Source of the DNA: Schmidtea nova
Taxonomy: Eukaryota
Reading direction: 5' to 3'
Length of the DNA stretch: 64,000 nucleotides
Assembly: GCA_044892505.1 (NCBI GenBank)
Contig: CM097883.1
Location: 242,358,001 to 242,422,000, forward strand
The notes beneath the pieces were generated by a model that saw only the letters and a list, made by a program, of their open reading frames with translations, was not told where the DNA came from and searched no databases. Shown piece by piece: positions 4,191 to 25,772 of this stretch (position 1 is its first letter; the number at the start of each line of letters is the position of its first letter). The position numbers and the translations under genes are program-made.

Positions 4191-4301
4191 TTTCTACAAT
4201 AATATATACTTTTCTACAATAATATATACATTCGACTTGTCATTTATTTTTGATTTTTCTTGTTTTTATTTTACATATTTACAGTTTTCCGCTTTATTTA
4301 T

Positions 4302-5236: not shown

Positions 5237-8200
5237 TTACTGCAGTTTCTCTGAGATCTGATATAATCCGCATTCTGGTTTTTCTGAACCTTTTCTGGTG
5301 AAGGTACATATCGCGTATGTCCTATTTACTTCCATTTTCTTTAATTCGACTTTTTCTTTATTCTTTATTTCTTTACAGTGGGTTAGGTTGTCTTCTTCCA
5401 CTTCTGGTTTATGTTTTGTCCAACATATTCCTTTAACTGTCTGATCAAGTCCTGTTAATGTCAGAGTTCTTTCTGTTTTAATTAGTTCTTCTTCATCGAA
5501 TTTCAGAATCTCTCCTTTTCGGAATGTCTTGCAATTCTCTGTTCCGGGTTGATCCTCTTGGGTTCCTTTCTCCCATATACATATACTTCCTTCTTCGTTC
5601 ATTTGTATTTCTTGTATTTCGATTTCCTTGTTTGTTCGTGATTCGTCGCTTGTCTGAACTTGGTATTCCTTCCTTGGTTCGTTGTATGTTCCCCAGCATA
5701 GTTTGTTGCTGCTTGTTTTTCTTATTGTTATGGCCATTTGTTCTATTATTATTCCTCTGTCAAAACGTTTGGACATTGCTATTATTAACGCTATGCATAC
5801 GCACTCTTGTTGGGGTGATATTCTTTCTCTCGTGTTATTGGTGCTTCTCTCCCCTTCTCCTGGTTTATCCGTTGTGTTTCTTATCTGAGTTGCTGGTTGA
5901 TCTATTGTGTTTTTGATTTCTTTCTTTGTTGGTTTTACTCTATACCATTCAAGTCTAGGCGTTTCGTATTTTTGGCATACGACTGTCTTAGGTAGCCCCG
6001 ACTTCTTTTCCTTTCCTATTATGCATATCCGATGCATGATTCCTCTATCCATCCCTTCTATTCGTACTATATCCTGGTTGGATTTTCTGATTATGCATTT
6101 TAGTGGGTTATCTTTCCCAATTAGTTCATCCTCTCTATTCCAGCATATTTTCTCGACCTCCTGGACATTTACTATTTTTATCCCTGCTTGTAGGTTTGTT
6201 GCTTCTTCCCTATTGATTAATGTCAATATTATTGTTAGACCCAACCATTTCGAACTCTGCGGTAGGCTTCTGGTTCGCCTTTCATATTTTTTCTCTTCGC
6301 CTTTAATCTCTTTTATTTCCTTGTCTTCGTTGTTTATTCCTAGTTTTCCGCTTTTTGCTTCTTTCTTATTTGGTTCTTCTCGTGCTTTTTCTTCTAGTAT
6401 TTCTACTCCATGGCTTGTATTATCTATATTTAGCCATTGGGTTGTTGATTTTCTGGGACTTATCTTGCGTATCCATATAGCTGATAAGGCGATTATTACT
6501 GGTATGGTTGCTGTTAATATTCCTAAACCAATTAATTCTTTAATTTGTTTATTCTCGTCTGTTTGTATAGATTCGCTTTGGTTGAACATTATTCCGTATT
6601 GTCCTTTTAGTTGTCTCCTTAGTTGTTCGCGTTCCTGCTGCTTTCTTTTGACTTCTTTGATAACTTCTTCCGGTGTCCATTTTGCTTGAGGATCGGTTAT
6701 TATTTTTTCTGCGTCCATTTGTTCATTCGTTTGGCTTAGTTCCTTGAATTCGAGTTTCCTTGCTACTCCTTTTGATGTCGCGTTTGCTGGTGTATAGTAG
6801 GTTTCGCATCTTTCTTGTTGGTTTCCTAGTGCGTCCATTTTTTCTATTGTACATACTTCATACTCGCTATTAAATTGTAGTTTTTCGATCCTGATTTCTT
6901 TATTTGTTTTTCTGCACTCTCTTGATTGTCTTCTTATATGTTTCTGGACTATTATCCAACATATTTCCAATGTTTTATTCTCTATTTTCCATAATGTTAG
7001 AGTTGCTGATGTCTTTCTCTCGGGTTTTGTCGTAACTTCCTGGCTTATTGGTTGTTTATTGTTTTTAAAGGTAGTGGTGTACTTCGGTTTTCCTTTGTTT
7101 CGTTGTTTCCTTTTATTTTTCCGTGTTAACGTTTTGGTTCTTGTTCCGGATGAAGTTATATGTATTCCGCATTCTAGGTCGTTTATCGTTATCTGATCAT
7201 TTTTCTTTACCAAACATATTTCGTAGGTTTGTTTACTTTCTAACCCTTTTATTTGTATCGTTGTTGCTCCTGTGCTTGTTCGGCATTGTGGTGTCATTCT
7301 TTTATTTACTTTCTTTTCGTACTTCCTCCAGCATACTCCTTTCACATTTGGTTCTATCTCTTTTATTTCTAATGTTATGTTTACTTTCCGCTTGATTTGT
7401 TTATTTCTCTTCCTCGTTCTCCTTCTGAACTTTATTACTTCTCCAGGTTGAAATGTTTTACATTTTGTGGTACCTTTCTTGTTTGTCTCTTTTTCTAGTA
7501 GGCATAGTTTGTACGTCTTATCTGCTTTTACTTCGGATACTTTAATTACTTTATTCGTTGTTGGTTTTCGACTTTTCCTTATTTCATTTACGCCGATTTC
7601 CTCGTTATTCCTCGCCCAACATTTTATGTTAGTATTCTGTGTATCTTCTACTTCTGTTATTGTCATAGTTTCAATTTCTATTCCTTCCTCTAATCGTTTT
7701 ATTATTATTAGTATGAGTGCTAAGTATAATACTTCCATTTGGTAAGACACTCTTTCGGTTTCGTTTGTGGCAACTCTTGCTTCGGGCCTCTCTATTGTAA
7801 TTCGTATAGTTGGTGTTGTTTGCTTATCTATTGCCTGGGGTTTTTTGTTTTCTGTTCCCTGTGTCTCTGTTCTTCCACATTTTCCGATGATGTAATCTCC
7901 TTTGGGTGACTGTTGTATTGTCATGGCTGCTTTAGGTGTTTGGTATTTTGCACATGCGATTGTGTTGTGTGATCTTGGATGCTTTTGTTTTCTAACGGTG
8001 CATATTTTGTACCAGGTATTTAGATCTAGGTCGTTGATCTCTATGATTTCTTGCTCGTGTTCTGAGATTCTGCAATCCATCGGACTATTTTGTTCCGTGA
8101 TTTTGTCCTTTTTTGACCAACATACTCGTTCGATTCCTTTTGCGTTTTTTATTTGTATTATTGCCCTTTCTTCACATGTCATTCCTTGACTTGGGTTAAT

Positions 8201-9226
8201 TAACGTTAAAATCACTGTTAATAATAGTAATTCTGGTTTGAAGAATGGTTTTATGGTTGATTTATAACCTGTTCTTTGGGTGTCATTTTTATCTCCTTGG
8301 TCGTTTTTTCCTTGTTCTCCCTCTTCATCTCTTTGTTTTTCGTCTTCATTTTTCTTTTCTTCCTTGTCTCGTTTCTTGTCTTTTCTCTCGTTTTCCTCTT
8401 TATCGGGTGGTTCGTGATCGTTTGAATTTTCTGAGTTGTTATCGTCGTCACTATCTGCATTGTCATCTCCCCCTGGCTCGTCGAAAATGTCGTCCTCGAC
8501 ATTGATTTCTTCTATTAGTTTTGCATACGCTAATGTCGTTAGATTACTTGCCTCGAATTCTTGTGTTTCTACCTGCTCCGGTATTACTTTGTTAGTGGAT
8601 TTATATTCCAAGATTTCCTTTTTGGCCTTGATCCAATTGTTGATGTATGTCTTCATCAATTCTTTCCATTTGCCTGTGTATTTTTCTTCTTTCGGGCTGG
8701 TTGTGATTTTTAGATCCTTTCTTTCCATAAACATCTTCAATATCTCTGGCCATTTATATGTTATTAGGGCACTTCTTATACACCAGTTTTGGTTATGTTC
8801 TGTAAACTCATTAATCCTGAATGCTAGTTCGTTGGTATTCGGATTTATCCACGTAAGTATTGATTCTGTTAGTTCAACATTGTGCATCATTGTCAATACA
8901 CTGGGTTTCTTAATTGTTTTGGTTAGGTATTCTATTTCTTCCTGGTTTGAGACGGTTTTAATGAAATTGACCATTTCCCAATTGTGTGTTAACAATGCTA
9001 CATCCAATATTGAATTATCTTTATCTGTTTTACCTGTAAGTCCTGCACCTGCTTTATATAGTTCTTCCAACACCTTTGTTTTTGTTTTGGCCCTTGCTGC
9101 AAATATCATAAGTGTATCTCCTTTCTCGTCTATCATATTCATGTTGCTTCCGCAGTTTAGCATTACTCTTGCAATTTCCATTACTTTTCTGTCTTTGCCA
9201 TTTCGTAAAGCTCTATGTATGGGCAT
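5237..9226 (-). CDS. Ankyrin repeats, helical domain, acidic linker, then two signal-peptide-led blocks of FN3-like modules (about 7) with a TM
   Basis: MPIHRAL, KGDTLMIFAA and NSILDVAL are ankyrin-like. Repeated CW..IxxLxxxxxYxIC..C modules. Hydrophobic segments LLLLTVILTLIN, LGLTIILTLIN and a TM near 6470-6535. Confidence 0.85.
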   Translation of the reverse strand: MPIHRALRNGKDRKVMEIARVMLNCGSNMNMIDEKGDTLMIFAARAKTKTKVLEELYKAGAGLTGKTDKDNSILDVALLTHNWEMVNFIKTVSNQEEIEYLTKTIKKPSVLTMMHNVELTESILTWINPNTNELAFRINEFTEHNQNWCIRSALITYKWPEILKMFMERKDLKITTSPKEEKYTGKWKELMKTYINNWIKAKKEILEYKSTNKVIPEQVETQEFEASNLTTLAYAKLIEEINVEDDIFDEPGGDDNADSDDDNNSENSNDHEPPDKEENERKDKKRDKEEKKNEDEKQRDEEGEQGKNDQGDKNDTQRTGYKSTIKPFFKPELLLLTVILTLINPSQGMTCEERAIIQIKNAKGIERVCWSKKDKITEQNSPMDCRISEHEQEIIEINDLDLNTWYKICTVRKQKHPRSHNTIACAKYQTPKAAMTIQQSPKGDYIIGKCGRTETQGTENKKPQAIDKQTTPTIRITIERPEARVATNETERVSYQMEVLYLALILIIIKRLEEGIEIETMTITEVEDTQNTNIKCWARNNEEIGVNEIRKSRKPTTNKVIKVSEVKADKTYKLCLLEKETNKKGTTKCKTFQPGEVIKFRRRTRKRNKQIKRKVNITLEIKEIEPNVKGVCWRKYEKKVNKRMTPQCRTSTGATTIQIKGLESKQTYEICLVKKNDQITINDLECGIHITSSGTRTKTLTRKNKRKQRNKGKPKYTTTFKNNKQPISQEVTTKPERKTSATLTLWKIENKTLEICWIIVQKHIRRQSRECRKTNKEIRIEKLQFNSEYEVCTIEKMDALGNQQERCETYYTPANATSKGVARKLEFKELSQTNEQMDAEKIITDPQAKWTPEEVIKEVKRKQQEREQLRRQLKGQYGIMFNQSESIQTDENKQIKELIGLGILTATIPVIIALSAIWIRKISPRKSTTQWLNIDNTSHGVEILEEKAREEPNKKEAKSGKLGINNEDKEIKEIKGEEKKYERRTRSLPQSSKWLGLTIILTLINREEATNLQAGIKIVNVQEVEKICWNREDELIGKDNPLKCIIRKSNQDIVRIEGMDRGIMHRICIIGKEKKSGLPKTVVCQKYETPRLEWYRVKPTKKEIKNTIDQPATQIRNTTDKPGEGERSTNNTRERISPQQECVCIALIIAMSKRFDRGIIIEQMAITIRKTSSNKLCWGTYNEPRKEYQVQTSDESRTNKEIEIQEIQMNEEGSICIWEKGTQEDQPGTENCKTFRKGEILKFDEEELIKTERTLTLTGLDQTVKGICWTKHKPEVEEDNLTHCKEIKNKEKVELKKMEVNRTYAICTFTRKGSEKPECGLYQISEKLQ

Positions 9227-12200
9227 TATTCCGTCCTTTGGTAGTAAAAAATGTTACTGGCATCTCCTTTTTTATAGTCGTTATGTCGTTACCATTGTAT
9301 GTTCCTTTTGCGTATGCGTGTACTTTTTCAACTAATGCGCCGAGTATTTCCAGTGCATGTTTACTATTCTCGAATTCCGGTAACAATTCTTTTGCTTTTT
9401 CTTGTATCGCATCTAGTCTAGCTTGGTATGGTGCTTCTGCTTTGAAGAGTGGTGTGAGTTTCCTGTTACTTTCTCTTTCTTTTTTCTCCAAAACCTGTTT
9501 GCATTTTTCGGGGTGGTTTAGGATTTTTACTAGTTCATCATACTCATTTACTATCGTCTGGTATTTCTCGTTAAAATTGTTTATGTCTTTGTATGTTATT
9601 AGTTTATCAAGTGGTTTCGCACACCATTTCCTAATCTTGTTGAATAAAGCCTCCTTCTCTTTATCGAATTTGTGTTCTTCTTCATTCTTTGTGATGTTTA
9701 TGTTCCCTCTGTCTAATAAGGTTAGTAATGTCTTTTGATCGCAAGTAAATTTCAAAAGATATCTTAACAGCGCGTTTTGTCCTTCGCTGTATACTTCGTT
9801 TATGTCTAAGACCCATGTATCATCTTCTGGTCGTTTCCATTTGATTAACTTACGGATCGTGTTGCATTTACCAATTTTTATTGCTTCTTTGATAATGTCT
9901 CCTTTTATTAATTCGTCTATTTCCCACGTGGAGTTAGCTATTATGTATTTCAGCATTGGTTGGTGAGAACTCCATATTACGTGATTTAGCACTGTTTTGT
10001 CTTCTCTATCTCGTTCTGTCCAACTGAAATGAGCCTTTATCAACAGATCTATCATTTCTTTATCTGCTTGGTGGATTGCGGCTGTCATTATTGGAGTTTC
10101 TTGTTCACGATTCCCCACGTCCAAGTTTTGGTTTGTTTCTTTTGCCATTTTTAAGAATTCTTTTGCTCTTTCAATGTTTTTACACTCTATCGCATTGTGT
10201 AAGGCTGGTTGTCCTCCTACATCTTTCAATAAGAGTATTTCAGGGATTTTTTCCAATAATTCAGAAATAATTGGTTCGGTTGGTAATCCTTGTGCGTAAC
10301 GGCTAATTATGTGTCTGATGTCCCTTGATATGCCTACTTCGTCTTTAACATGCCATCTTCCCATTATTTCTCTCGCCTTCAATATGATCTCTTTATTTCT
10401 GATTTCCTTTTGCCTTACTTCCGCTTTGTCGTCTTCGCTTGTGTTTGCTCTGAGCATATTTATCCTGGCTGTTTGTGATCTGGTTATTATTCGATTCTCT
10501 GGTGTTGTAGTTATTGTTTTAGGCACCTTCTTACATCTGCAAGTGTTTACATATATGGGTCGTATTAACGGTCGATTTATTAGCTTAACTTTGACATTAT
10601 TGTCCTTTTTGTATATAATTTCATAAGGTCCTCTTCCAGGTCTTTGGAGTTTCTTAACCGTTCCTGGTATTATTTCGGGAGTTTCTATTATCACCCAATC
10701 TCCTGGTTTTAGGTCGTTCGCTTTAACATTTTTCTTCTGGTCGTGTAAATCCTTATAACTTTCCTGATAAAATTTAATGTTAAGTTCTGCCGTCTTCCAT
10801 ATTTCCTGCATTCTTTCTTTGAATTTGGTTACGTAGTCGTCGTCTTCCATATATTGCGATAATGGTGGTTGATACTCTAAATCTATGGGCATGTTGCATT
10901 CTCTTCCATACATAAGTTGAAACGGGCTTAGTTTTGTTGCTGCATGTATCGACATGCGGTATGCCATTAAACATAATTTTATGTATTCGTCCCAATCGGT
11001 TTGATGTCTGCTGACGTAATTTGATAACATTCTAATCAATGTACCGTTGAATCTCTCTGTTTGTCCATTCGTTTGCGGGTGATATGGTGAAGTTCTCAAT
11101 TTTGCTATTCTGAAATAGTTGGTCACCTCGTTCAGTAACTCACTCATAAAGTTGGTTCCTTGGTCTGTGAGAATTTGTTTTGGAGTTCCGTATCTGCAAC
11201 ATATTTCTTCCACTAGAATTTTTGCTACGGTTTTTGCTTTTTGATCTTGCATGGCAAATGCTTCCGGGAATTTCGTCAGATAATCCGTTATTACCAATAT
11301 ATAAATATTTCCGTTTAAACTTTCTGGTAATGGTCCTATTACGTCCATTGCTATAGTTGTCATTGGCTCTGCTGGTATTGGCATTGGTTGTAGTGGGTTT
11401 TTCCATTTCTTCCCACTATCCTTTCTGGTTGCACAGGTTAGGCAATTTTTAATCCATTCTTTAATATCTTCTTCCATTGTTCGCCAATAATATTTTTGTC
11501 TCATACGATTTATTGTCTTTTTCTCTGACATATGCCCTCCTAATTTCCCATCATGGTATTGGATCATTATCTCTTTCCTTCTGTTTTCCGGTAAGCACAT
11601 CAATTTCTTTACCCCGTCTTGTATTAACAACCATTCTTTGCTTAATATATAGCGATGTTGATATTTTCCTATATGTTCCTTTAATTCCTTATTATCCTTG
11701 AATACCTCCATATTTCGAGATGTTAGGAACTCTATGATTTGTCCTAATTCTTTGTCTTCCTGCTGATCTCTCTTAAGCTCGCTAAAATCTAAATCTTCTG
11801 CTATTAATACACAAATTCGTTGTACATCAGGATCGGTTAGTTCCGGGAATGTCAGTCTTGACATACAGTCTGCATTCGCATTTGCTCTTCCTGATTTAAA
11901 TTTTATATCTGGTGAGTATTCCTGTAACTGCATTGCCCATCGCATTAATCTACTGGATGTTTCTTTGTGCTGTCCTAACCATACAAGCGGTTGGTGATCT
12001 GTTGTTATGCAGATGATGTGTCCCCATAATAAATATTTAAAATGTTTAATCGCTAATATAATCGCTAATGCTTCCCGTTCTGTCACTGAATAATTTTTCT
12101 CATGCTTTTTGAATGTCCGGCTATAATATCCGATTACACGTTCTTTTCCTTCATCATCGTATTGTCCTAATACTGCTCCCGCTGCATATCCGCTTGCATC

Positions 12201-15200
12201 TGTTGCAAGTAGGAATGGCTTCTTAAAGTCTGGGTGTACCAATATGGGTGCGGTTATCAGTTTATCTCTCAACGTTTCAAAGGCTGTTTGTTGTTCATCC
12301 CCCCATATGAATGATACATCTTTCTTTACCAGCTCTTGTATAGGTTTTGCGATTCCGGCGTAATCTTTAATAAACTTTCTATAGTATCCACATAGTCTGA
12401 GAAATTCTTGTATTTGGGTTATTGTTTTTGGTACTGGGCATTCTTTTACTTTGTCGATATTTCTAGGATCCGGTTCTTTTCCTTTTGCTGACACTATATA
12501 TCCTAAAAATGTAACCTTTTCTTTTGCCCAATCGCATTTGGATGGCTTGAGTTTTAACTTCCATTGTCTAAGCCTAACGAATACATCTCGAATATCCTGT
12601 ATGTGTTGTTCTAATGTACTAGAATAAATTAATAAATCGTCGATGTAGACCATGCACTGCTTTATTCCATGGGTGACGAAATTCATGCATCTCTGAAATG
12701 ATGCTGGTGCGTTTGTTAATCCAAATGGCATTTTTCGGAATTGATATAGGTCTCTACCGATGGTAAAGGCAGTTTTCTCTTTATCTTCTTCCTTCATTTT
12801 TATTTGCCAATATCCGCTTTTCAGATCTAACGACGTAAAATATGCTGCTCCTTGTAGTGTTAGTAGCATTTCGTTGATGTCCGGTAATGGATAAGTATCC
12901 CGTTTGGTCACGGTATTCAATCTTCGATAATCTATGCAAAATCTCTGTGTTCCGTCTTTCTTCTTTACCATTACCACTGGAAATTGCCAGGGTGAACAAC
13001 TTGGTTCGATTACTTCCGCATCCAACATTTTCTTCACTTCTGCTTCTGCTACTGCTTTCTGTGCTTCTGCTAATTTGTATGGTCTTAATGCAATTGGTGT
13101 TTCGTCTGTTAATGGTATTGTATGTAGTGTGACATCACATGTTCCTAGATCTAAATCGGATGCTGCAAATATATCCTTATACTCTATCATGAGTTTTTCT
13201 AACTGCTTCCTTTGATCCTCATTTAATAATTCACTATCAATATTCCAGGTTGGTTCTTTATCTTTCTCTGCTCCTTCTATTGGTAGTTCGATATCCATCA
13301 TTGGGGTTAATTTACCTAATCTTTCGTTTTCGTAGATTATTTTGTCCTCTTCATCGAAGTTTACTACGTTTATTGGGATTTCTCCATCGTCATTTATGTT
13401 GACTAGTCCTCTTGCCATTGGTAATGCTTTTCTTTTCTCGAATCTTTTGCTTGGTTCGAAAATCATATCCCCCTGGATTGTCGGATCTATTTTTACATAA
13501 CATATTTTTTCCTTTCTTGCGGGTATTATCATTTGCTTTGAACTTGTCACTTTGGCTTCTATTGCGCATATTTGTCCTGTGCGATCTTTCAGTCTCATTG
13601 TTCCGAGATCGATTACAATCTCTTTAAATAATGCTGGCATCAAATCTGTTCCGATAATGCAAGGTACGCTTAATGCTGGTATGACGGCTACGTACGTATC
13701 GATTTCTGTATTTAAGTGGCGTATTTTTACCCACCATCTTCCTGCTACTTCTACGATTTCTTTGCTACATGCAATTACGTGGACGTTTGTCCTTTCTATT
13801 TCCCGTCTTTGCTCTTGTGGTATCCATTTGATATCGATGGCGGAAATATTTGCTCCAGTGTCGATCATTGCTTCGATTTCTCTTCCGTTAATCTCTATTG
13901 TCGTGGTTAATACTGGACCTGTGTTTGATGACATTACTGCGATCGTGTGTGTATCTCCTTGTGGATCTACGCTTCTACATCTTCTCATTTTATAATCTTC
14001 TGGTATCATGGGGTATACATTTGTCATTGGCATCATTTGCATCGTGCTATTTTTTCCTCCTTGTAGTGGTTCTTGATACATTGTTGGTGGAGGTGCGTAA
14101 CATTTCCATGCGTCGGCTGGATTCTTTTCGATGTACTGTGGTGCTTGGTTCTTATACACTTGTCCTCCTTTATAGTCGTCATCGTCATCATCGTCGTCAC
14201 TCGAATCATTTTGGGTTTTATATCCTTTCATCCTCTCCCATAAACCTTTTCTTTCTCTCTTGAGCTGTTGTCTTGCTTGTTCGTCGTTCATTATCTTTTT
14301 AAATTTGCGTCCTACTTCTTCATCTGTTCCCTTCATTTTTGCTAATATCTTTAGGAGTCTTTTTATTCGGTGGATATCTTTTGAGTGACCGTGTAACACC
14401 ATCGTTTTCGCAAGGAATGGTAAAAATCCTACTACCATTTTCCAATTCACTTTCTTTTCTCTCTTGTAGATATCGAAACACGCTAGCATTTGCGTTATTA
14501 TCACTCTGACGATTTGTATTATTAATATAACCCCTAGTATTCCAGCCATCATTTGTCCGAATATCAGGAATCTTCCCCACATTGCTTTCATCATATTTTC
14601 TGTGGCTTTCTTGAAATGTGCTGGTGACAACAATAGTTCATAATTCGGTCCTTCTCGATAATCCGTTCCTCCCGTTATCGTTACGATATTTAACAGTAAT
14701 GCTTCTCTTCTCGCCGGGAATAATATATTCTGCCTTGCTGCTTCTAAATCTTTTGGGCTATATATTCCGTTGTTTGAGACATCTACGTCGCTGAATTGCC
14801 TATCCTTTGACAACTGCATTAGTTCGAATTCTCTTGGTGCTATTACTTCGGCTCTTCCTGGGAACATAACCCATTTACCATCTGGCTTCTGATAAAGCGG
14901 TCCGTATGCATTACTACAGTTGAATGGATTTGGTTCAAACCCTGGTGGATTGATGATTCTCGTCACCGGTTGAACGTATCGTACTTTTCCTTTGTAATCG
15001 ATTTCTAACTCATTTGTACAGGTTCCAGGTTTCAACTGTGTTGTTGCTGCTAGTGACGCGTGTGTCTTTTCGCAAATGTATACATACATTGCTTCTCCAA
15101 CCACTCTTCCGAAATGTCCTTCTCTCAGTGGTAATAATGGCATCGCGCTATCTGGATTCGTAATCGCTACGGCCAACTTTGTCTTTAATATTTCTCGATT

Positions 15201-18200
15201 CAGTATACAATCATTATTTATCAGATCGTAATACACTTTTTGTAATGAGGCTTGTCCTCTATGGAATAAGAAATCCATTTTATTATTCACATACAGGTGT
15301 AGTTTGATATCCATTGTGTCGATTTTGGGTTTCGCATTTGGTACTTCTTGTTTTGACACATATATTCCTGGGTAATTCGTTTCGTATACCGTTGTACTAC
15401 ACTTAAGGGTTGCTTTCCCTTTTATGAACCTCATTCCCACATCCTGATTTGTGGTTATCAATACTGTTGGTGTGGCTCTCATCTCTATCCGTTTTTCCCT
15501 ATGATCTGGTTTCAATTGTCTTTTATTCTCCAACGCTTCCTTGAGATGCTTTGCTCTAGCTTTGTCGTCATCGTCTTCTTCCTGGAATGTCTTTCCTTGA
15601 ATTTCGTCGAACTGTGCTCCTTGTAGCAGTTGTAATTGACATTCGTTCACCTTTGGTTTGTATACTAATGTTGACATTCCCGTTTGACACATGCTCCTGT
15701 CGATTTTACACATGGATAACGTTTTCATTTCTCCCGTTGTTGGTTCGAAGAATGCTTCATAGCTTTTTAATTCGACTATATACGTATCCATCACCACTAA
15801 GTTAGTTGCGGGTGTTCCGAATATCGGGTAGGTTTCTCCTTGACAATATCCTTCTCCTCCCGTAATCCTTCCTGCTACATAGTATGTTTGTTGCAGCATC
15901 ATTCCTGGTTTTCCTCTTATCTTGATTTTATCTCTTGTTGTTACTTCTCCATGTTTAAACAATGCTTCGCAGTCTTCTCCTTGTAACACGATTGGTTCTC
16001 TTTCCGTTCCTGGCATGACAATTGCTGAATAATGTCCTCTCCCGCAGTAGAATGCGAATCTCGTCTTCTGCACCTTACATTCATTCACCATTGTCTTTAT
16101 GAGTTCTGCTTCTTGATACACGTGGTACCATTGTTCCTTTTTAATCTTTTGTAACTCTACTGGAGTTGCATCTTTGCATTGCTCCGTACCTCTCAATGAA
16201 TACTTTTCTCCTAACTTCATTTGGTCGCAATCAAACACTTCGAATGCTGTTGCGCTATCGGTGCTAATCATCCATATCAACATCATCATTATTATAGAAC
16301 TCAAATTCATTGATGACTTCGCGTTTCCTGTTCCTGCTTGTTCTTTTTCTAACTCTTCCAATATTTTTTCGAATTTCTTTTTCATATTCTTTGCTTGCGT
16401 TTTCTTCTGGTTATTTTTTATAAATGTTTCCCATCCTCCTTTGTTAATGACGTATGGTTCTATTTCTCTGGCTATAATTTTTGCGGTATTTTTTATATGT
16501 CTCTCTAATGCAGTGGGTTTTGGTCGACCTCTACTCAGTGTCAACAGATTGTAGATCGTGTATGCAATGGCTATTATGTATTTATTATCCGTTTCCGCTC
16601 CTTCTGTCAGTTTCTTTATTAACGTAGTGGTTCCTTGCCAGTCTAAATGATTTGATTTCGTCTTTTCTTTTATGAATTCCGGTAAGATGGGTGCGATTGC
16701 GCTGTGTAGTGACTTCGCCTTTTCGCTTATCTCAGTTATCCGCCAGTATTTTCTTAATTCCGGATCAATTATTGCCAATATTTCCATTATTGTTTTCGAT
16801 ATCCATTCCTCCCCTTGACATATTGGTGTTGTCTCTTTTTCTTTTATCTCCGCAATTTTATTTAGTTTCCTTAAGCATAATTCCCATTGGTCTTGTCTCT
16901 TTTCATCCTTATTTCTGATGACTACATTCGCTGGGTCTGTCTTGGGTCTACCTCGAGGTCGTCTATCCATTCCTGTACCTGTTTCCACAAACCTTGTTGC
17001 CCGTCCGGTTTCCTCGGTGACATCTCTTGGTTCGTTAGCTCTTTCTTCTAACCATCTTTCCATTTCCTGGGTTAATTGTACATTTTCGGCATATGCTCCT
17101 CTTGTTTCATCTTCTGTCAAATCGTTTACTTCTTCTATTATTATCTCTTGTTCGACTTCTGTTTCTCCGGTGTTGGTTACTTGTATTGTCGTAGGTAATT
17201 CTTGTATTCTTTCGAAAATGTTATCGTCTTTTTCCTTTGTTAATTCGGTTAGCTCTTCTATCATATCGTCACTATCCGTTAAAATTTCGTCTACGTCGTA
17301 TGGTTGTGGTGGAGTACTTTCTCTGGTTCCTCTGGGTGTTGTCTCAGATCGTCTCGAACTTGTCCCTGGCGTTAGTACTGATTTCATCGGGCTCGGCGTA
17401 CTTATACTTCCGTGTGGTTTATGGTTTTCTTCTTTACGTTTCAATGGTTGCCCCGCTATTGCTTCCACTGTCAAGGTATTCATGAGATCTAATTGTGCTG
17501 GCGTTATTCCGATTTCCAAACTGTTATCTAATGATCGTCCTTGGTGTTGTAAATGGAATGGTGGTTCGTATCTCAATTTCTTTTTAATATCTCGAATTTT
17601 TTCTGCTATTCCTACCCAAAGCTCTTCCTTATCCTTGTTTGGATATATTATTCTTAAATGTACTTTTTGTGGAATTTCTTGCGAGAATTCTTGATTTCTC
17701 CATTTCCTAATTACGTGGTCTAGTTGTTCCGGGCACCACTCGTTAACTCTTTTATATTCCGCGATTGCTTTTGCTACTTTACGTAAACATGTTATATCCT
17801 CTCCATTTACCACGAAAAAATCTGCGAGACCCTTTATTACTTTTCTCTTACCGTGCGCATTAGTTTTTAATATTTCGACAAATTCTTCCGTTTTTTGCTT
17901 TTCCCTTTCTAACCACATAGCCGCGGTTTCTGGTCCATCTAGGTCTATCGGTGTAGCTTTCCTTGTCACCATGCAAACCCTTCCCATTTCTGGTTCGCAG
18001 TCATCTTCCATTCCTCTTTCATATTCTTCTTCATATTCTCCTTCTTTTGGTTCCCAACATTTTCCTTTCTTGTTCCATTGTTTTTCTACGGGTGTTCGTA
18101 TTCGTCTGTTGAGGTTGAGTTCTTCTAATACATTTTCCCACTCTGGCCAAATTCGCCAATTTCGATAAATTTCTACTATTTGTTGTAATTTGCGCACAAC

Positions 18201-21200
18201 TTCTTTCCGTCGTTCCCGTTCTCTTTTCTCATCTTTAGCAGTTTCTCTGGGTGTATCGTCCATTCTGATAACGTGGATGGTTTGGTGATTATCCCATATA
18301 CCGATTTTATATAGTCGTCTCTCATCGTGATCCCATAATACATGTTCGTTGTATTGTATGATTATGTCGTCTTCCCATTCGTCTTCTGGTTCTCTTTGCA
18401 CTAGTGTCTCGTTGATGACATTTATTAATTCTTTAATGGTGCAATCCGCTACCACTTCAATTTCTTTGGTGTCTTCATTAGGCAATTCTACTGAAATTTT
18501 TAGATCCGTTATTTTCCCTTGTCTAAACATTATTTTTCCCATTTTTGCGATTAATTTGTCGTGTGAGATCTGTGACCATCTCGTGTGGCTTGTGTCACGT
18601 ATGCACTCAATACATCGTTTCAATTTCTCGTATTCGCTTCTCATTAACTCTTTTCTATGTTTTTTGACTTGTGGTATGATTTGTTCTATCAGGGAATTTA
18701 GATTCTTTCGTAAGACTCGTTCTTTCTCGTATTCTAACCGGGGTTTTATTCTCCTTTCGAAACACATGTTTGCTTCCTTTGCAACTTCTTGTAGGTTCTC
18801 TTCTTCTTTTTCATCACATATTGATAACAGAGTTATTTCTCCTGGCCATATACCTGTTTCCACTAAGTGCGTTCTTTTCTTTACGAGTCTATTCTGCGAA
18901 TAGATGAATTTGTTTTTATATGAGCTCCCGAGCCTGTCTTCTACCCATCTGTAGATATCATCTGTAAATGGAGTTTTGATCCAGATTCTTGGTGTAGATG
19001 TATTTATTATTATTGAGATGGTGTAATTGAGGAGTGGTTCCTCTATTAATTTCCCTACGTATCGATTTAACATGTCTACTTCTCGGTCTTGTAACCATTC
19101 TTTGTAGTTCATTTGTAATAATGCTTTCATGAATTTCCGATATTGTTTCTTGTCCATGAATTCTTCGTTATATATTACTTCTAGCGAGTTATCTAATAAT
19201 TTCTGGATTTCATCTACTTTTATCTGTGTAGGTTCTGAGGTCTTTATTACTTCTCTCTCTTGGTTTTCGTCTTCGGATTCGTTTAATATGTCTCCTGCTA
19301 GGCTACTGATGTCACTATCTTCTTCCTCATCGGAAAACTCTCTGGTGGTATTTCTTAACATATTAATATGTGCTATTTGGTTCGTTTCCCCTTGTATGTT
19401 CTCCGTTGGTTCTGGTTCGTTTTTGTCAATCTCTGATGTTGGTTCACTCTTGTCCTCTATTACTTCGACCTTTCTCATTTTCTTTTCCAACTCGTCTATT
19501 TCTTTTAAACGTCTTCTTATCATTTTTCCTTTAAATATTCGACTGATTCGGGTTTCGTGACGCACTGGTGGTGGAATTTCTTCTGGTTCTATTTCTTTAA
19601 TAATCATCACGTTTCTTTTTGTTTCTACTACTCCCATGTTTTCCCATATATCCGTTAATTCCAACTTTACTTTTGGCGCACCTTCTATTTGTAGGAACGC
19701 TTCTCTGGGCAGTTTCGTTACTCCTAGAACCATCTGGTTTACTTTGTTGAATAATATTCCCACTTCTTCTTTTACGTTATACTGGAATCTAAACACGGAT
19801 TTGTTGGGCATGATTACCATCATTCTTCTTTTCCAAATCTCCCTTTTCTCTTCCTGGTTTGTCTCAGTTTCCACTTCCTTTTCTATTTCTTTTTCTACCT
19901 CCTCATCTTTTTGTACTATCTTTTTTTGACTTTTGTTGTCGGCTGGATTCGGGTCTATCGAATTCATTTCCAGTGTGGTTTCTTTCTCGCGAGTGTCTGT
20001 TTGGTTTGTTGCTCTTAGCATGTTAATTCTTAGAGGTTGTCGCTCTCTTTCTTGCTGTTTTTGTTCATCCTCTCTTTGTATTCTTGCCCATTCCTGAGCG
20101 TGTCGTGCCTGACTTTCTCGATTCAAACGTTCGTTTTCGCTTTCTATTTTTCTCATCATGCTAATTTGCTGTTGATTGGTTTGCGGATTTCCTCTCGTCG
20201 TATTGTTTATCAGTTCCGTCAACCTTTGAACTTCTTGCATCAAATGTATTTCTTTGGGGGTGGTTTTGTTCTGATTATTGTTATTATTGACTTGTTGGTT
20301 CCCATAATCTTGTCGGTTTACGGTATTTGTTTGATTTCCGTAATTTTGTCGGTTCCCATTACTCTGCCAGTTTCCTCGCTGATTACTTTTTTGTCCGCAA
20401 TTTCTTGAATAGTGACCAGGTCGTCCGCAATTAAAACAGATTATTGTAGAACATCTACTTTCCGAATGTCCTTTAACTCCACATTTTCCGCAATTCAAAT
20501 TTTGATAGCATTCTTGTTGCCAGTGTCCCAATTTTCCACATGTTTTACATTGTCTTGTTTGTCCTTGAGGGTTGTAATTGTTTTGGTTTCCAAAGTTCTG
20601 CACTTTATTTCCTTCATTCCTTCGTTGAGGGGGTGGTCGGTTTAATTGTTGCGAATTTGGAATGTGATTGTTGAGATTTACCTGTGGTTCGGTTTGTGCT
20701 GTGTCCATGGCTAAATAAATTCTGCCCTCACTTCCTATCATATGCAATTCGAATCGGTTAGCTGTTTCTAACGCTTGATCAATGGTCTTGCATCCTTGGC
20801 ATCCAACTTGCGCTCTTATGTCAGGTCTTCTTAGTCCTCCTATGAAGATAGCTGCCATTAACTCCTCGTTTATTGGACCTCCATCCTTGAATACCGATTT
20901 TGCTAATTTTTTCAGTTCACTCGCGTATACCGCATTAGATTCATTCATCTTTTGTTTCCTCATTGAGAATTCTATGAATGCCTCGCTTAGCACTTTATTT
21001 ATTCCAAATGTTTGTTGGAAAAAATCCTTTATCGCTGTCCAGCTTGTAGGTGGATTGGTACCATTTTTCGCTTCCAAATATAGGTCCAATGCACTATCTT
21101 TCAAATATAACTGAATTCTGCTTACTGTTGTTTCCGCTTTCCATTTGCATACTTCCACGAATATGCCAAATTCCTTTAAAAAGGTTTCTAATTTACTCGC

Positions 21201-21806
21201 ATCTCCGTTAAATGGTTCTCCTGAAAATTTATCCTTTATTTCTTCTCTTGGTTCACCCATTTCAATTCCGCTGTCTTGAGTTATTTTACTTTCGTTTCCT
21301 CTGGTTTCTAGTTCGTTGTTATGTTCGTCTTCTGTTTCACTCGAGCTTGAATCGCTTTCTGTTTCTCTTATTACTTCGTTATCCGATATTATACTTTCGT
21401 TATCACTCGCGTTGATTTCTATCTCTGGTTCTACCTCGTTTTCTACTTCTTCGATATTATCGTTGTTAGTTTCGTCGATTTCTCCTTCTTGTTCTATCTC
21501 GTGTTCTATTTCCTCGATATTATCGTCGATTTCTATTTCACTTGTTTGGTTCTCCTTGGGTTCCGCATGGTTTTCTTTGTTACTTGAGCAGTTGCTTGCT
21601 ACTGATAATTTATCGTTTTCGATAATCGATTTATCTCTTATTATTCTCCTCGCTTTACTCCCTTGTGGGTTCTTGTTGTTATCTTTGCCGGCTTTCTGCT
21701 TTTTTGCTGTTTTTGTTGTAGTACTAATTTTGTCTTTTTTGTTAATATTGCTGCCGACTTTCTTTTCCGTTGGCTTTACTACGACAATCTTTGCTCCTTT
21801 TCTCAA
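9213..21806 (-). CDS. 4197-aa polyprotein: Gag, UBL array, Bcl-2-like, Env, PR, RT, RNase H, IN, ankyrin
   Basis: Single uninterrupted ORF; domains listed separately. The TTG start is assigned by the ORF track; the first ATG is at 21260. Confidence 0.96.
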   Translation of the reverse strand: MRKGAKIVVVKPTEKKVGSNINKKDKISTTTKTAKKQKAGKDNNKNPQGSKARRIIRDKSIIENDKLSVASNCSSNKENHAEPKENQTSEIEIDDNIEEIEHEIEQEGEIDETNNDNIEEVENEVEPEIEINASDNESIISDNEVIRETESDSSSSETEDEHNNELETRGNESKITQDSGIEMGEPREEIKDKFSGEPFNGDASKLETFLKEFGIFVEVCKWKAETTVSRIQLYLKDSALDLYLEAKNGTNPPTSWTAIKDFFQQTFGINKVLSEAFIEFSMRKQKMNESNAVYASELKKLAKSVFKDGGPINEELMAAIFIGGLRRPDIRAQVGCQGCKTIDQALETANRFELHMIGSEGRIYLAMDTAQTEPQVNLNNHIPNSQQLNRPPPQRRNEGNKVQNFGNQNNYNPQGQTRQCKTCGKLGHWQQECYQNLNCGKCGVKGHSESRCSTIICFNCGRPGHYSRNCGQKSNQRGNWQSNGNRQNYGNQTNTVNRQDYGNQQVNNNNNQNKTTPKEIHLMQEVQRLTELINNTTRGNPQTNQQQISMMRKIESENERLNRESQARHAQEWARIQREDEQKQQERERQPLRINMLRATNQTDTREKETTLEMNSIDPNPADNKSQKKIVQKDEEVEKEIEKEVETETNQEEKREIWKRRMMVIMPNKSVFRFQYNVKEEVGILFNKVNQMVLGVTKLPREAFLQIEGAPKVKLELTDIWENMGVVETKRNVMIIKEIEPEEIPPPVRHETRISRIFKGKMIRRRLKEIDELEKKMRKVEVIEDKSEPTSEIDKNEPEPTENIQGETNQIAHINMLRNTTREFSDEEEDSDISSLAGDILNESEDENQEREVIKTSEPTQIKVDEIQKLLDNSLEVIYNEEFMDKKQYRKFMKALLQMNYKEWLQDREVDMLNRYVGKLIEEPLLNYTISIIINTSTPRIWIKTPFTDDIYRWVEDRLGSSYKNKFIYSQNRLVKKRTHLVETGIWPGEITLLSICDEKEEENLQEVAKEANMCFERRIKPRLEYEKERVLRKNLNSLIEQIIPQVKKHRKELMRSEYEKLKRCIECIRDTSHTRWSQISHDKLIAKMGKIMFRQGKITDLKISVELPNEDTKEIEVVADCTIKELINVINETLVQREPEDEWEDDIIIQYNEHVLWDHDERRLYKIGIWDNHQTIHVIRMDDTPRETAKDEKRERERRKEVVRKLQQIVEIYRNWRIWPEWENVLEELNLNRRIRTPVEKQWNKKGKCWEPKEGEYEEEYERGMEDDCEPEMGRVCMVTRKATPIDLDGPETAAMWLEREKQKTEEFVEILKTNAHGKRKVIKGLADFFVVNGEDITCLRKVAKAIAEYKRVNEWCPEQLDHVIRKWRNQEFSQEIPQKVHLRIIYPNKDKEELWVGIAEKIRDIKKKLRYEPPFHLQHQGRSLDNSLEIGITPAQLDLMNTLTVEAIAGQPLKRKEENHKPHGSISTPSPMKSVLTPGTSSRRSETTPRGTRESTPPQPYDVDEILTDSDDMIEELTELTKEKDDNIFERIQELPTTIQVTNTGETEVEQEIIIEEVNDLTEDETRGAYAENVQLTQEMERWLEERANEPRDVTEETGRATRFVETGTGMDRRPRGRPKTDPANVVIRNKDEKRQDQWELCLRKLNKIAEIKEKETTPICQGEEWISKTIMEILAIIDPELRKYWRITEISEKAKSLHSAIAPILPEFIKEKTKSNHLDWQGTTTLIKKLTEGAETDNKYIIAIAYTIYNLLTLSRGRPKPTALERHIKNTAKIIAREIEPYVINKGGWETFIKNNQKKTQAKNMKKKFEKILEELEKEQAGTGNAKSSMNLSSIIMMMLIWMISTDSATAFEVFDCDQMKLGEKYSLRGTEQCKDATPVELQKIKKEQWYHVYQEAELIKTMVNECKVQKTRFAFYCGRGHYSAIVMPGTEREPIVLQGEDCEALFKHGEVTTRDKIKIRGKPGMMLQQTYYVAGRITGGEGYCQGETYPIFGTPATNLVVMDTYIVELKSYEAFFEPTTGEMKTLSMCKIDRSMCQTGMSTLVYKPKVNECQLQLLQGAQFDEIQGKTFQEEDDDDKARAKHLKEALENKRQLKPDHREKRIEMRATPTVLITTNQDVGMRFIKGKATLKCSTTVYETNYPGIYVSKQEVPNAKPKIDTMDIKLHLYVNNKMDFLFHRGQASLQKVYYDLINNDCILNREILKTKLAVAITNPDSAMPLLPLREGHFGRVVGEAMYVYICEKTHASLAATTQLKPGTCTNELEIDYKGKVRYVQPVTRIINPPGFEPNPFNCSNAYGPLYQKPDGKWVMFPGRAEVIAPREFELMQLSKDRQFSDVDVSNNGIYSPKDLEAARQNILFPARREALLLNIVTITGGTDYREGPNYELLLSPAHFKKATENMMKAMWGRFLIFGQMMAGILGVILIIQIVRVIITQMLACFDIYKREKKVNWKMVVGFLPFLAKTMVLHGHSKDIHRIKRLLKILAKMKGTDEEVGRKFKKIMNDEQARQQLKRERKGLWERMKGYKTQNDSSDDDDDDDDYKGGQVYKNQAPQYIEKNPADAWKCYAPPPTMYQEPLQGGKNSTMQMMPMTNVYPMIPEDYKMRRCRSVDPQGDTHTIAVMSSNTGPVLTTTIEINGREIEAMIDTGANISAIDIKWIPQEQRREIERTNVHVIACSKEIVEVAGRWWVKIRHLNTEIDTYVAVIPALSVPCIIGTDLMPALFKEIVIDLGTMRLKDRTGQICAIEAKVTSSKQMIIPARKEKICYVKIDPTIQGDMIFEPSKRFEKRKALPMARGLVNINDDGEIPINVVNFDEEDKIIYENERLGKLTPMMDIELPIEGAEKDKEPTWNIDSELLNEDQRKQLEKLMIEYKDIFAASDLDLGTCDVTLHTIPLTDETPIALRPYKLAEAQKAVAEAEVKKMLDAEVIEPSCSPWQFPVVMVKKKDGTQRFCIDYRRLNTVTKRDTYPLPDINEMLLTLQGAAYFTSLDLKSGYWQIKMKEEDKEKTAFTIGRDLYQFRKMPFGLTNAPASFQRCMNFVTHGIKQCMVYIDDLLIYSSTLEQHIQDIRDVFVRLRQWKLKLKPSKCDWAKEKVTFLGYIVSAKGKEPDPRNIDKVKECPVPKTITQIQEFLRLCGYYRKFIKDYAGIAKPIQELVKKDVSFIWGDEQQTAFETLRDKLITAPILVHPDFKKPFLLATDASGYAAGAVLGQYDDEGKERVIGYYSRTFKKHEKNYSVTEREALAIILAIKHFKYLLWGHIICITTDHQPLVWLGQHKETSSRLMRWAMQLQEYSPDIKFKSGRANANADCMSRLTFPELTDPDVQRICVLIAEDLDFSELKRDQQEDKELGQIIEFLTSRNMEVFKDNKELKEHIGKYQHRYILSKEWLLIQDGVKKLMCLPENRRKEIMIQYHDGKLGGHMSEKKTINRMRQKYYWRTMEEDIKEWIKNCLTCATRKDSGKKWKNPLQPMPIPAEPMTTIAMDVIGPLPESLNGNIYILVITDYLTKFPEAFAMQDQKAKTVAKILVEEICCRYGTPKQILTDQGTNFMSELLNEVTNYFRIAKLRTSPYHPQTNGQTERFNGTLIRMLSNYVSRHQTDWDEYIKLCLMAYRMSIHAATKLSPFQLMYGRECNMPIDLEYQPPLSQYMEDDDYVTKFKERMQEIWKTAELNIKFYQESYKDLHDQKKNVKANDLKPGDWVIIETPEIIPGTVKKLQRPGRGPYEIIYKKDNNVKVKLINRPLIRPIYVNTCRCKKVPKTITTTPENRIITRSQTARINMLRANTSEDDKAEVRQKEIRNKEIILKAREIMGRWHVKDEVGISRDIRHIISRYAQGLPTEPIISELLEKIPEILLLKDVGGQPALHNAIECKNIERAKEFLKMAKETNQNLDVGNREQETPIMTAAIHQADKEMIDLLIKAHFSWTERDREDKTVLNHVIWSSHQPMLKYIIANSTWEIDELIKGDIIKEAIKIGKCNTIRKLIKWKRPEDDTWVLDINEVYSEGQNALLRYLLKFTCDQKTLLTLLDRGNINITKNEEEHKFDKEKEALFNKIRKWCAKPLDKLITYKDINNFNEKYQTIVNEYDELVKILNHPEKCKQVLEKKERESNRKLTPLFKAEAPYQARLDAIQEKAKELLPEFENSKHALEILGALVEKVHAYAKGTYNGNDITTIKKEMPVTFFTTKGRNNAHT
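9900..10220 (-). other. Ankyrin-repeat block fused downstream of integrase (approximate bounds)
   Basis: GQPALHNAI, QETPIMTAAI, DKTVLNHVI repeats. Confidence 0.85.
10600..11600 (-). other. Integrase (HHCC zinc finger, DDE core, GPY/F motif; no chromodomain seen); approximate bounds
   Basis: YHDGKLGGH..CLTC; AMDVIGPLP; TDQGTNF; NGQTERFN; GPYEI. Confidence 0.95.
11860..13060 (-). other. Reverse transcriptase and RNase H (approximate bounds)
   Basis: YIDD at 12636-12647; TDASGYAAGAVLGQ; NYSVTEREALA; TDHQPL. Confidence 0.97.
13310..13920 (-). other. Aspartic protease followed by a degenerate dUTPase-like linker (approximate bounds)
   Basis: AMIDTGANIS (DTG at 13854-13862) and IIGTDLM. The linker IIPARKE..MIFEPS..ARGLV..IPINVVN resembles the PR-RT spacer of many gypsy elements. 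Confidence 0.85.
14200..16310 (-). other. env: Envelope glycoprotein, chuvirus/gB-like class III fusogen (approximate bounds)
   Basis: Internal signal MNLSSIIMMMLIWMISTDSATA then FEVFDC; CKVQKTRFAFYCG; LHLYVNNKMDFL; C-terminal MWGRFLIFGQMMAGILGVILII TM. These match my recollection of chuvirus-type glycoproteins. Confidence 0.8.
16415..16900 (-). other. Bcl-2-like domain (approximate bounds)
   Basis: EIEPYVINKGGWETFIK is BH2-like (compare HTWIQDNGGWDAFVE); a degenerate BH1-position helix NKYIIAIAYTIYNLL precedes it at plausible spacing. Confidence 0.7.
17450..19810 (-). other. Array of 3-4 ubiquitin-like domains with helical spacers (approximate bounds)
   Basis: LKISVELPNEDTKEIEV..CTIKEL..IIQYNEHVL..LYKIGI..TIHVI and VHLRIIYPN..KIRDIKKKL..LQHQGRSL follow the ubiquitin pattern. 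Confidence 0.65.
20396..21260 (-). other. gag: Gag capsid-like domain and three CCHC zinc knuckles
   Basis: FNGDASKLETFLKEF..LYLKDSALDLY..FIGGL; CKTCGKLGHWQQEC, CGKCGVKGHSESRC, CFNCGRPGHYSRNC. Confidence 0.93.
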
Positions 21807-22381
21807 GGGGATTACTTTTGTATACTCAATTTTCTTGTCCTATCTCTTATCGTGTTCTGATTCTTCTTGCTTGATTGATTGATTTGATTGATTTGTATAT
21901 CTAAAATACAAAGGTCCTCAACGATACATTATTGTTATCGTCGCGCTTTTATTCCCTTTCTTTCGGGATTACTTATTACTGGGTTTTCATTATTTCCCAA
22001 TTCCCAGATTCCCCTTTATTTTTAGTCTATTTAAATTATCTATAGACTGGTCACAATTATCTATTTATGTCGTAATAATTATCTATACTTTATAAATCAA
22101 TTACTTTTCCCACAGTTTCCCAATTTATTGGTCGCTCGAGCGCTCTAATTCCCTGAGTCTTTCTGACTCGTTTATCGTTATTTTATCATCTTTATTCATT
22201 ATTCCCTGTTAGCAATTGTTTTACTCATTCTGCCGGTTGCTCCGGTCAGCTCAAATCTCTACTATTCTCCTTGCATGCTTTATTTAAGGTTGCATAATCA
22301 GCTTTACTCGCATTCTCTTAACTACTAGTGCGCACTACTCTAAATCTCGTCGACGATTACACTATGGGTCTATATTCCCTC

Positions 22382-22934
22382 TGTAGTGGCACGGTTCATT
22401 CATATATTAAATTACAAAAAATTAAAAATTGTTTTGTAAAAAACTTGTTATTTAAAAATTGTAGTTTAAAAATTAATTTTATAAAAAGTTGTTTAAAACT
22501 ATCAAAAGTTGTAAATAAAAATAAATATTTGTTATCTTAATTTAAAAGTGTTTTCTTAAATGGCTTCCAGTATTTCATTCATTAATATTGAATATTTGAC
22601 ATTTAATCACTGCAAACAATCGGATTATACCAATAGCGAAGAAGTCATTCAATTACAATTCAATGATCTCTTTGGATTACTAAGAACTGAGGCCAAGCTT
22701 AATAATAATCTTTCATCAAAGGACGATTTTGAAAGGCTATTCAAAACATGGATTCCATCTGTTGATAATCAGTATGAACAGACAATTAATGAGCCATTCC
22801 ATGATGCGATTTTATTCCACAGTACTCAAAGTCGACTCAGTAGAAGTTTAACAAATTTAAAGATAAAAACAGATACTGACTCAAACATAATGCTAGAAGG
22901 TTTCGAGAAGGCGCACTACGCCCGAAACACTTCA
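22382..22934 (+). repeat. 5' LTR of the nested element (553 bp)
   Basis: Starts TGTAGTG, ends CACTTCA; its last 147 bp (22788-22934) repeat at 25585-25731 with one mismatch seen. Confidence 0.88.
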
Positions 22935-24323: not shown

Positions 24324-24439
24324 TCACCCCGTTTCTTCTTGCGGCAGAAGTAGGCGGTAATCATCCACACAATTTTTTTCTCAAACTCTTCTCACCTAGT
24401 TTTTCTTTTCTCTCATCTCCTTCTCTCAATTCTCCCGAA

Positions 24440-25589
24440 AATTCACTTTCTGATAGATACCGGATCGAGTCTTTCACTACTCCCCATTTCTTTCAGCGCT
24501 GATAACAACACAACTTATACACTCCGCGCTGCTAATGGCAATTACATCACAACCCGCGGTTGTCTACCAGTCACGTTCCGCATTGAGAACCTACCGGACG
24601 AGTATACTTGGACTTTCTCCATTGCCGAGATAAGCTGTCCCATATTGGGGATGGATTTCCTATCTGCCAACCATTTGTTAATAGATTGCTCGAAACACCG
24701 TCTTGCTAAATGTAACGATCCAACCCTCCCCACATCTTCTGCTATTTTGAGCACAACTCCTGATAATTCTAACACTTCACCCCATGACTCCGGTCATTCG
24801 AGATTCATCAATGAACAACTGAACCTCCACCCTCAACTATTAAAACGCTCAAATGATTCAAAATCCTCAAATCCCAGCTACTACCATAGAATTGAAACTT
24901 CTCCTTCTCTCCCTCTCCGAGAACGTTTCAGACCACTGTCAGGAGACAAACTCAATTTCCTTCGAGAAGAAATCCAAAATCTCTTAAATACTGGTGTTAT
25001 TCGACGTTCAGCCTCACCATGGGCCTCACCAGTACACATAGTTGCCAAACATGACGGTAAATTCAGGGCATGTGGGGACTATCGTCGTCTAAACGCGATT
25101 ACCATACATGATTCGTACCCCATGCCCCTCATCAATGACGTCTTATCTAGATTGTCACATGCTTCAGTTTTTTCGACACTGGATTTGGTGAAAGCATACC
25201 ACCAAATACCGGTACATGACATGGATGTGCCTAAAACTGCGATAATAACTCCCTTAGGCCTATTCGAGTATTTACGTATGCCATTCGGACTGAGGAACGC
25301 AGCGCAAACGTTCCAACGTCATATAGATGGCGTTCTTTCTAAATTAGATTTCGCCGTTGCCTACGTCGACGACATTATCGTCGGATCTTCCTCACAGGCA
25401 CAACATTACGAAGATTTACAGAAAGTTTTAGAAGCCTTAGCCAATAATAATCTTCAAATTAATCCTTCGAAATGTTGTTTCTTTCGTCCTGAAGTACAAT
25501 TTCTGGGGCATTTCGTCTCTGGGTCTGGCATCCGCCCCCTACCATCTCGGTTGAAATCCATCAATGATTTTCCTATTCCAGGAAAATGA
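24440..25589 (+). pseudogene. pol: Nested pol fragment: protease and RT, truncated
   Basis: FLIDTGSSLSLLP in frame with ORF 24645-25589; FRACGDYRRLN, LDLVKAYHQIP, MPFGLRNAAQTFQ, YVDDI. Breaks off into the 3' LTR remnant. Confidence 0.93.
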
Positions 25590-25731
25590 GCCATTCCATG
25601 ATGCGATTTTATTCCACAGTACTCAAAGTCGACTCAGTAGAAGTTTAACAAATTTAAAGATAAAAACAGATACTGACTCAAACATAATGCTAGAAGGTTT
25701 CGAGAAGGCGCAATACGCCCGAAACACTTCA
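25585..25731 (+). repeat. 3' LTR remnant of the nested element
   Basis: 147-bp copy of 22788-22934, followed by TSD CCCTC. Confidence 0.9.
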
Positions 25732-25772
25732 CCCTCTATTACTATTTATCCGGATATCTCTATAGTTCACTA

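Follow-up and report, generated by a model that had tools for sequence, protein, structure and literature searches.

A predicted class III fusion glycoprotein encoded in frame between the Bcl-2-fold and protease domains of a Burro-like Ty3/gypsy element of Schmidtea nova

Introduction

Giant retroelements that carry an envelope gene (env) inside a single long open reading frame (ORF) have been described from planarians. In Burro, env lies in frame between BCL2 and the protease (PR), and the same study presents Burro/GYPSM1 of S. mediterranea and a Burro-like element of Dugesia tigrina as giant, many-copied elements with one huge ORF, in which a Gag with three CCHC knuckles, a BCL2-like domain, the in-frame env, Pol and ankyrin repeats are accompanied by MATH/TRAF and RING cargo (PMC6431247). 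BURRO1 is transcribed, and in S. mediterranea its level increases upon smedwi-2 RNAi (PMC8532177). Here we analyse an element of this kind in a stretch of 64,000 nucleotides of Schmidtea nova (contig CM097883.1, positions 242,358,001 to 242,422,000; “the window”), and ask what its envelope protein (Env) is likely to do.

A recent survey reports GAG-ENV-POL elements with a gB-type env from Platyhelminthes, Nematoda and Bryozoa, and argues for an ancient origin (PMC13524379). The original prediction for the window, made from the letters alone, had regarded the position of env as unusual and contrasted it with the baculovirus-F-like env of gypsy. This layout was published in 2019 (PMC6431247) and again in 2026 (PMC13524379), and the contrast proves too narrow, gB-type env being as widespread as F-type in Ty3/gypsy according to the survey (PMC13524379). 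With the layout already on record, what is added here is the selection on Env, its tail with a predicted protease site, the signal sequence as an anchor for the Bcl-2-fold domain, and a set of surface proteins behind the integrase.

The glycoprotein within the polyprotein

A frame free of stops (ORF1; 9213..21839, 4,208 codons counted between stops, with the first ATG at 21260) occupies the minus strand, on which all features lie unless marked otherwise. It encodes, with zero internal stops, Gag, a Bcl-2-fold domain, a signal sequence, a fusion glycoprotein (Env), a transmembrane anchor, a tail, PR, reverse transcriptase (RT), RNase H (RH), integrase (IN) and ankyrin repeats, in that order. 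Gag (20397..21260) comprises a capsid-like domain (PF03732, E 1.7e-4) and three CCHC knuckles (PF00098 and motifs), and some 1,350 amino acids (aa) of additional domains, the last of them the Bcl-2-fold domain, separate it from the glycoprotein; an insertion in frame between gag and protease had been proposed, and while the order and the absence of a stop bear this out, Env does not directly follow Gag. The internal signal sequence with its A-x-A site (16245..16310; signal-like segment, aa 1844-1865) leads into the ectodomain (14553..16244), which starts at 16244 and extends for 554 aa to an MWGRF motif at 14582, and the anchor (14496..14552, aa 2430-2448) was assigned by hydrophobicity and is under strong constraint. 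No other 19-mers in ORF1 are as membrane-prone as those of the signal and the anchor. The motifs and coordinates originally given for signal, ectodomain and anchor were thus correct, as was an ectodomain length of about 550 aa; the term “Cys-rich” does not fit, since the 14 cysteines (2.5%) are conserved rather than abundant, 13 of them being kept at 90% or more across 130 homologues.

The tail (13932..14495) consists of a conserved semi-hydrophobic segment, an acidic run, a YP motif (14015) and a predicted protease site at its end. It had been said to run straight into PR, with which it does share the frame, but it is about 190 aa long and PR begins near 13904, below the lower bound of the region then proposed. 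Pol is made up of PR (13632..13904; PF00077, E 5.9e-7), RT and RH (11916..12968; PF00078, PF17919, PF17917) and IN (10631..11591; PF17921, PF00665, GPY motif), and is followed by the ankyrin-repeat region (9216..10448; PF12796, E 7.3e-10). Judged from the signal and the anchor, Pol is predicted to lie behind the Env anchor on the cytosolic side, in agreement with the original prediction.

The glycoprotein matches PF24664, the chuvirus-type glycoprotein family, at E 6.5e-70 and 863 library proteins at E≤0.001, and the match is therefore not a chance one. Its predicted structure (pLDDT 89.6) finds its best counterpart in chuvirus-like G and, among solved structures, in herpes gB; on this model Env has a class III fold of the gB/chuvirus G type, nearest to chuvirus-like G, as had been proposed. 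Of the features of a class III fusogen, the gB/G/GP64-type fold (by prediction), the signal, the conserved disulfide pattern and the C-terminal anchor are present; hydrophobic bipartite fusion loops are less clear, the tips of the predicted hairpins aligning with those of relatives but being rich in His, Tyr and Gly. The glycoproteins of chuviruses (Jingchuvirales) and related Monjiviricetes share with it the fold, the Cys pattern, the transmembrane region and the YP tail at 17-28% identity; each of them, however, is encoded by a separate gene of about 650 aa that has a start of its own, whereas Env is embedded here in a retroelement polyprotein. Modelled Env and the solved herpesvirus gB are alike in domain arrangement and in a post-fusion-like long helix, but are only 10-13% identical. 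Homologues of gH/gL or gD were not detected in the scanned frames. Chuvirus glycoproteins reportedly occur in BEL/Pao elements as well (Dezordi 2020, PMC7642597), which would place the same glycoprotein family in a long terminal repeat (LTR) element of a different superfamily. The Pfam scan of ORF1 gave none of the families that mark BEL elements.

Conservation among copies and relatives

Selection was assessed by aligning 39 further copies with that of the window. Over these copies the ectodomain had a ratio of non-synonymous to synonymous differences (pN/pS) of 0.04, as did RT and PR; the tail followed at 0.05, the Bcl-2-fold domain at 0.07 and the spacer at 0.15. For variants present in at least three copies, Env stood at 0.03 versus 0.02 for RT, and around the anchor (aa 2420-2452) there were 172 synonymous differences and a single non-synonymous one. 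By these counts Env is under purifying selection equal to that on RT. Six marks (CCHC, GGW, Env start, anchor, PR and YxDD) were found in one open frame in 16 of the 39 copies, and the frame breaks comprised one stop common to two copies and others each private to a single copy, no break being present in more than two. Gag, Env and Pol without an intervening stop or frameshift is accordingly, as far as the aligned copies indicate, the norm of the family, and the absence of a gag-pol frameshift had been correctly predicted.

The genome holds three more ORF types with Gag, Bcl-2, Env and Pol (loci L117-L122; open frames of about 3,400, 3,390 and 3,070 aa), the first two of which may belong to one wider family, and seven database polyproteins of 2,296-4,057 aa have the same Env (35-40% identity) upstream of protease or Pol. 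Among relatives, P0001, P0004, P0005, P0009 and P0010 were observed to have two or three protease-like domains around Pol. In a quick Env tree, which took in 85 of 132 rows, the window Env falls within a set of 19 rows (SH-aLRT 95) composed of polyproteins and fragments; on the opposite side are most of the glycoproteins of stand-alone length together with a G fused to the BEL-type domain DUF5641 (P0058), and two rows of stand-alone length are on the side of the window. An independent capture by this lineage had been proposed, but Env groups with other Gag-Env-Pol polyproteins and three more families of the genome share the layout; tree and layout indicate that the capture of env is clade-wide and not specific to the window element.

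The Bcl-2-fold domain, the tail and the predicted protease sites

The Bcl-2-fold domain (16395..16862; structure model pLDDT 77) retains a BH2-like GGW motif, its BH1 being degenerate. All Foldseek matches listed for it are members of the Bcl-2 family (TM-scores about 0.5-0.66; best E 3.6e-3, none reaching 0.001); the window copy had zero Pfam matches in this domain, and a homologue in another family exceeds the Pfam cut-off or comes close to it. Bcl-2 proteins are tail-anchored. In four families the domain ends some 57-67 aa before Env, and the signal, once cleaved off, would therefore serve as its tail anchor; ATA|F at the junction of signal and Env is retained in 38 of 39 copies, and the listed relatives likewise have a hydrophobic segment at the position of the signal. 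It is thus likely, on this analysis, that the internal signal also anchors the Bcl-2-fold domain.

One motif occurs ten times in the polyprotein, five times at domain borders and never in the ectodomain, and these occurrences are the predicted protease sites. One adjoins PR on its upstream side, 25 aa behind the YP motif, so that cleavage there would restore a virus-like Env tail. Of 14 polyproteins, 13 have the YP motif, as do 49 of 82 glycoproteins of stand-alone length, and YPMI together with the predicted site was found in all 39 copies.

Surface proteins behind the integrase

The polyprotein continues (4784..9253) into a second ankyrin block and then two units of signal, ectodomain and anchor with seven Cys-bearing repeats of about 90 aa. 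Two breaks interrupt it in the window copy, one near 9.2 kb and the other at 5237-5239. In a set of 20 sister copies, the frame stays open across the first place in 16 of the 17 that span it and across the second in all 15 that do, which implies that the ORF of the family is about 5,500 aa long. The repeats bear a weak similarity to FN3 (E 0.008 and E 0.099), and the two surface units have a pN/pS of 0.23-0.30. Hydrophobic pairs after IN were found in six of six full-length database relatives and in all three of the other families of the genome. Our leading guess is that these are attachment proteins, the alternative being that they act on host cells as a decoy or as cargo. In the literature searched, with primary sources incompletely covered, we found no account of such proteins behind the Burro integrase or of Burro particles.

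The element and its other features

The element is bounded by a 5′ LTR of 2,233 bp (27574..29806; TG...CA, its end set from 20 LTR loci) and a partial 3′ LTR (1..792, recognised by its match to the 5′ LTR) that extends beyond the window on the left; the two are 99.55% identical over 2,225 bp, and both flanks have a 4-bp target-site duplication, CAGG. The primer-binding site (27550..27567) is complementary to the 3′ end of a host tRNA-Pro(TGG) gene. Genes of this type form a tandem array of 308-bp period at locus L101 (G000:C1:459.61-459.66 Mb), the pattern being matched 1,105 times genome-wide. Ahead of the 3′ LTR (793-812, minus strand), in place of a plain polypurine tract, a C run lies between two G runs, and these runs could pair. 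The domain order PR-RT-RH-IN with gypsy-type domains, TG...CA LTRs, a tRNA primer-binding site and a short duplication are those of Ty3/gypsy, the lineage originally named; the assignment is by domains and ends, the RT tree having been drawn solely among relatives. A 601-bp env probe against the 1.25-Gb genome gave 775 candidates, which are first-look matches and not copy numbers, and the 40 scored were 97-100% identical. The element is young and high in copy number, with hundreds of copies in its host. Four family copies were seen in a same-orientation run at about 33-kb spacing (G000:C1:590854286-590954841).

An internally deleted, unrelated Ty3/gypsy element from outside the family is inserted on the plus strand (22382..25731; TG...CA ends, 5-bp duplication CCCTC, gag-like and RT ORFs inside), and other contigs jump 3,355 bp at this point; without it the element measures 27.9 kb, of which 23.4 kb is internal. 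Another LTR pair elsewhere in the genome is 25,653 bp apart. To the left of the window, a 13.9-kb duplicate of the 3′ half of the element (G000:C2:242342707-242356567) ends at a 500-N run; it is 100% identical where compared and is likely an assembly overlap.

Four accessory ORFs were found: one with a C-terminal RING finger (26780..27241; PF13920, E 8e-11), a coiled-coil-like one of 125 aa (4302..4679), a full TRAF-like protein with RING, zinc fingers and MATH (2814..4193; PF22486, E 3.6e-20, and PF02176; pN/pS 0.12), and a coiled coil (1639..2727). An acceptor-like AG with a T-rich run is located 2-3 nt upstream of the ATG in the RING, TRAF and coiled-coil ORFs (27241, 4190 and 2700, minus strand), whereas no splice acceptor was found ahead of the Env signal. 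Upstream of its first ATG, ORF1 is open for 193 codons (21263-21839, minus strand), with Met in none of the 39 copies, one stop, no frameshift and a pN/pS of 0.31 (codons 61-193); this stretch likely codes for protein, with a non-AUG start or splicing possible. The leader between the RING ORF and ORF1 (25728-26332) contains two tandem arrays with units of 32 bp and 29 bp. Outside the element there are open frames at 56006-56914 (minus strand, 302 codons) and 62607-63998 (minus strand, at least 463 codons).

Discussion

Three marks of the Burro-like clade are present in the element: giant size, its internal 23.4 kb falling within the clade's range of up to about 25 kb, a single Gag-BCL2-env-PR-RT-RH-IN-ankyrin ORF and MATH/TRAF cargo (ORF 2814-4193). 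For a Ubiquitin/SUMO-like domain before BCL2 there was only Ubiquitin_4 at E 0.09, in one of four candidate stretches, and Pfam gave zero matches for a dUTPase-like domain between PR and RT. No BIR family, a mark of Burro1-4, was found in the 11 frames scanned, for which reason we file the element as Burro-like and not among Burro1-4 of S. mediterranea. Likeness to published Schmidtea elements was judged from descriptions and by-eye comparison. The element differs from Burro in its size (about 27.9 kb without the nested insertion), in the length of its family ORF (about 5,500 aa, as opposed to 4,873 and 5,140), and in having TRAF as a downstream accessory ORF; the section on Burro in the earlier study names no surface proteins behind the integrase, and where the Burro Env was likened by HHpred to gypsy Env, with mention of mononegavirus hits, the fold modelled here is class III (PMC6431247). 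The HSV/gB-type “errantiviruses” share the gene order, the gB-type fold and the Cys spacing, and the domain I-II row of Smed_errantivirus_5, compared by eye, has Cys positions, PGTERE and GMRFIKG in common with the window Env; in the parts of that survey covered, the main text does not use the words polyprotein, fused, frameshift or splic-, the six Schmidtea rows come without LTR or primer-binding site, and a selection test on copies is absent (PMC13524379).

We consider it probable that this Burro-like element, with a gB/chuvirus-type env conserved to the level of RT in frame between the Bcl-2-fold domain and the protease, travels from cell to cell in enveloped particles whose fusion protein is Env. 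From the sequence, the predicted fold, the selection and the family-wide layout we infer five steps. Genomic RNA would be translated in the cytosol into a single polyprotein, Gag first; the internal signal would thread Env into the endoplasmic reticulum (ER), where signal peptidase would cut at ATA|F and leave the signal attached to the Bcl-2-fold domain as its C-terminal anchor; the anchor of Env would halt transfer, keeping tail and Pol cytosolic. The element protease would then release Gag, PR, RT-RH and IN, its cut just before PR giving an Env tail that resembles a stand-alone viral G, YP motif included, and capsids would bud at Env-bearing membranes, with predicted Env trimers fusing with the next cell. 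The equal synthesis of Gag, Env and Pol that had been proposed follows from a single chain only if there is no spliced RNA or selective turnover.

Several points weigh against this interpretation. The TM-scores of the Env model to solved gB are only 0.34-0.42, and the predicted fusion-loop tips GRGHY and ITGGEGY are low in hydrophobicity. The pN/pS counts are pairwise against one copy, uncorrected and not independent, and the 39 copies were those that resembled env most closely at the DNA level, a choice that biases its divergence downward. The protease-site motif was derived post hoc from the same sequence, which inflates its shuffle result (10 versus a mean of 1.4), and it fits relatives poorly, with 0-5 matches. 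Were the conserved semi-hydrophobic segment after the anchor to cross the membrane, Pol would be placed in the lumen. The survey, in its section 11, calls the cell entry of gB-carrying elements unknown (PMC13524379).

Env might instead be functional inside the cell, in assembly on ER or nuclear membranes, or fuse neighbouring cells and so let naked capsids through, free infectious particles being absent. A single chain yielding Gag, Env and Pol puts Env at the assembly site by design, the ectodomain has a single N-glycosylation sequon, and selection and fold cannot separate budding from cell fusion; however, a retained viral tail with its YP motif and additional type-I surface proteins would better suit a surface or secreted role, and we hold this explanation to be rather unlikely. 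Less likely still is a fusion-dead Env, conserved only because misfolding in the lumen would commit the entire polyprotein, including Pol, to ER quality control. The position of Env upstream of Pol in the same chain and the weakly hydrophobic loop tips would suit such a role, but in-frame loss of env would lift the cost, and yet none of the 39 copies lacks env (a weak point, the copies having been chosen by env); env is moreover kept in all four families examined, the surface loop CGRGHY is intact in 37 of 39 copies, and constraint is far weaker on the other two luminal units of the chain (0.23-0.30). That a chuvirus gene was captured recently by this element, or that the arrangement is an accident of the window copy or its assembly, might be suggested by the closest viral folds being chuvirus-like G and by the assembly duplicate and 500-N run just left of the window. 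We reject this as very improbable, the frame being common to many copies, to three other families and to independent database polyproteins at 35-40% identity, and the 19-row Env clade having an SH-aLRT of 95.

A bolder extension of the particle interpretation, which we put forward as speculative and doubtful, would make Burro-like elements infectious retroviruses. Their entry machine would have two parts, both cut from a single polyprotein with six membrane crossings: a conserved gB-type fusogen between Gag and Pol, and fast-evolving FN3-like surface proteins behind the integrase that would bind the receptor and trigger the fusogen, while a Bcl-2 fold anchored by the Env signal would keep the producer cell alive. 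The role of the FN3-like proteins is suggested by analogy with the attachment proteins of herpes- and paramyxoviruses.

Selection on Env equal to that on RT in a young family implies that Env is needed in the replicating lineage. This bears on the possible spread of gB-carrying Ty3/gypsy elements in enveloped particles and on how they enter cells without gH/gL, and the surface proteins behind the integrase are concrete candidates for the attachment partner that is missing.

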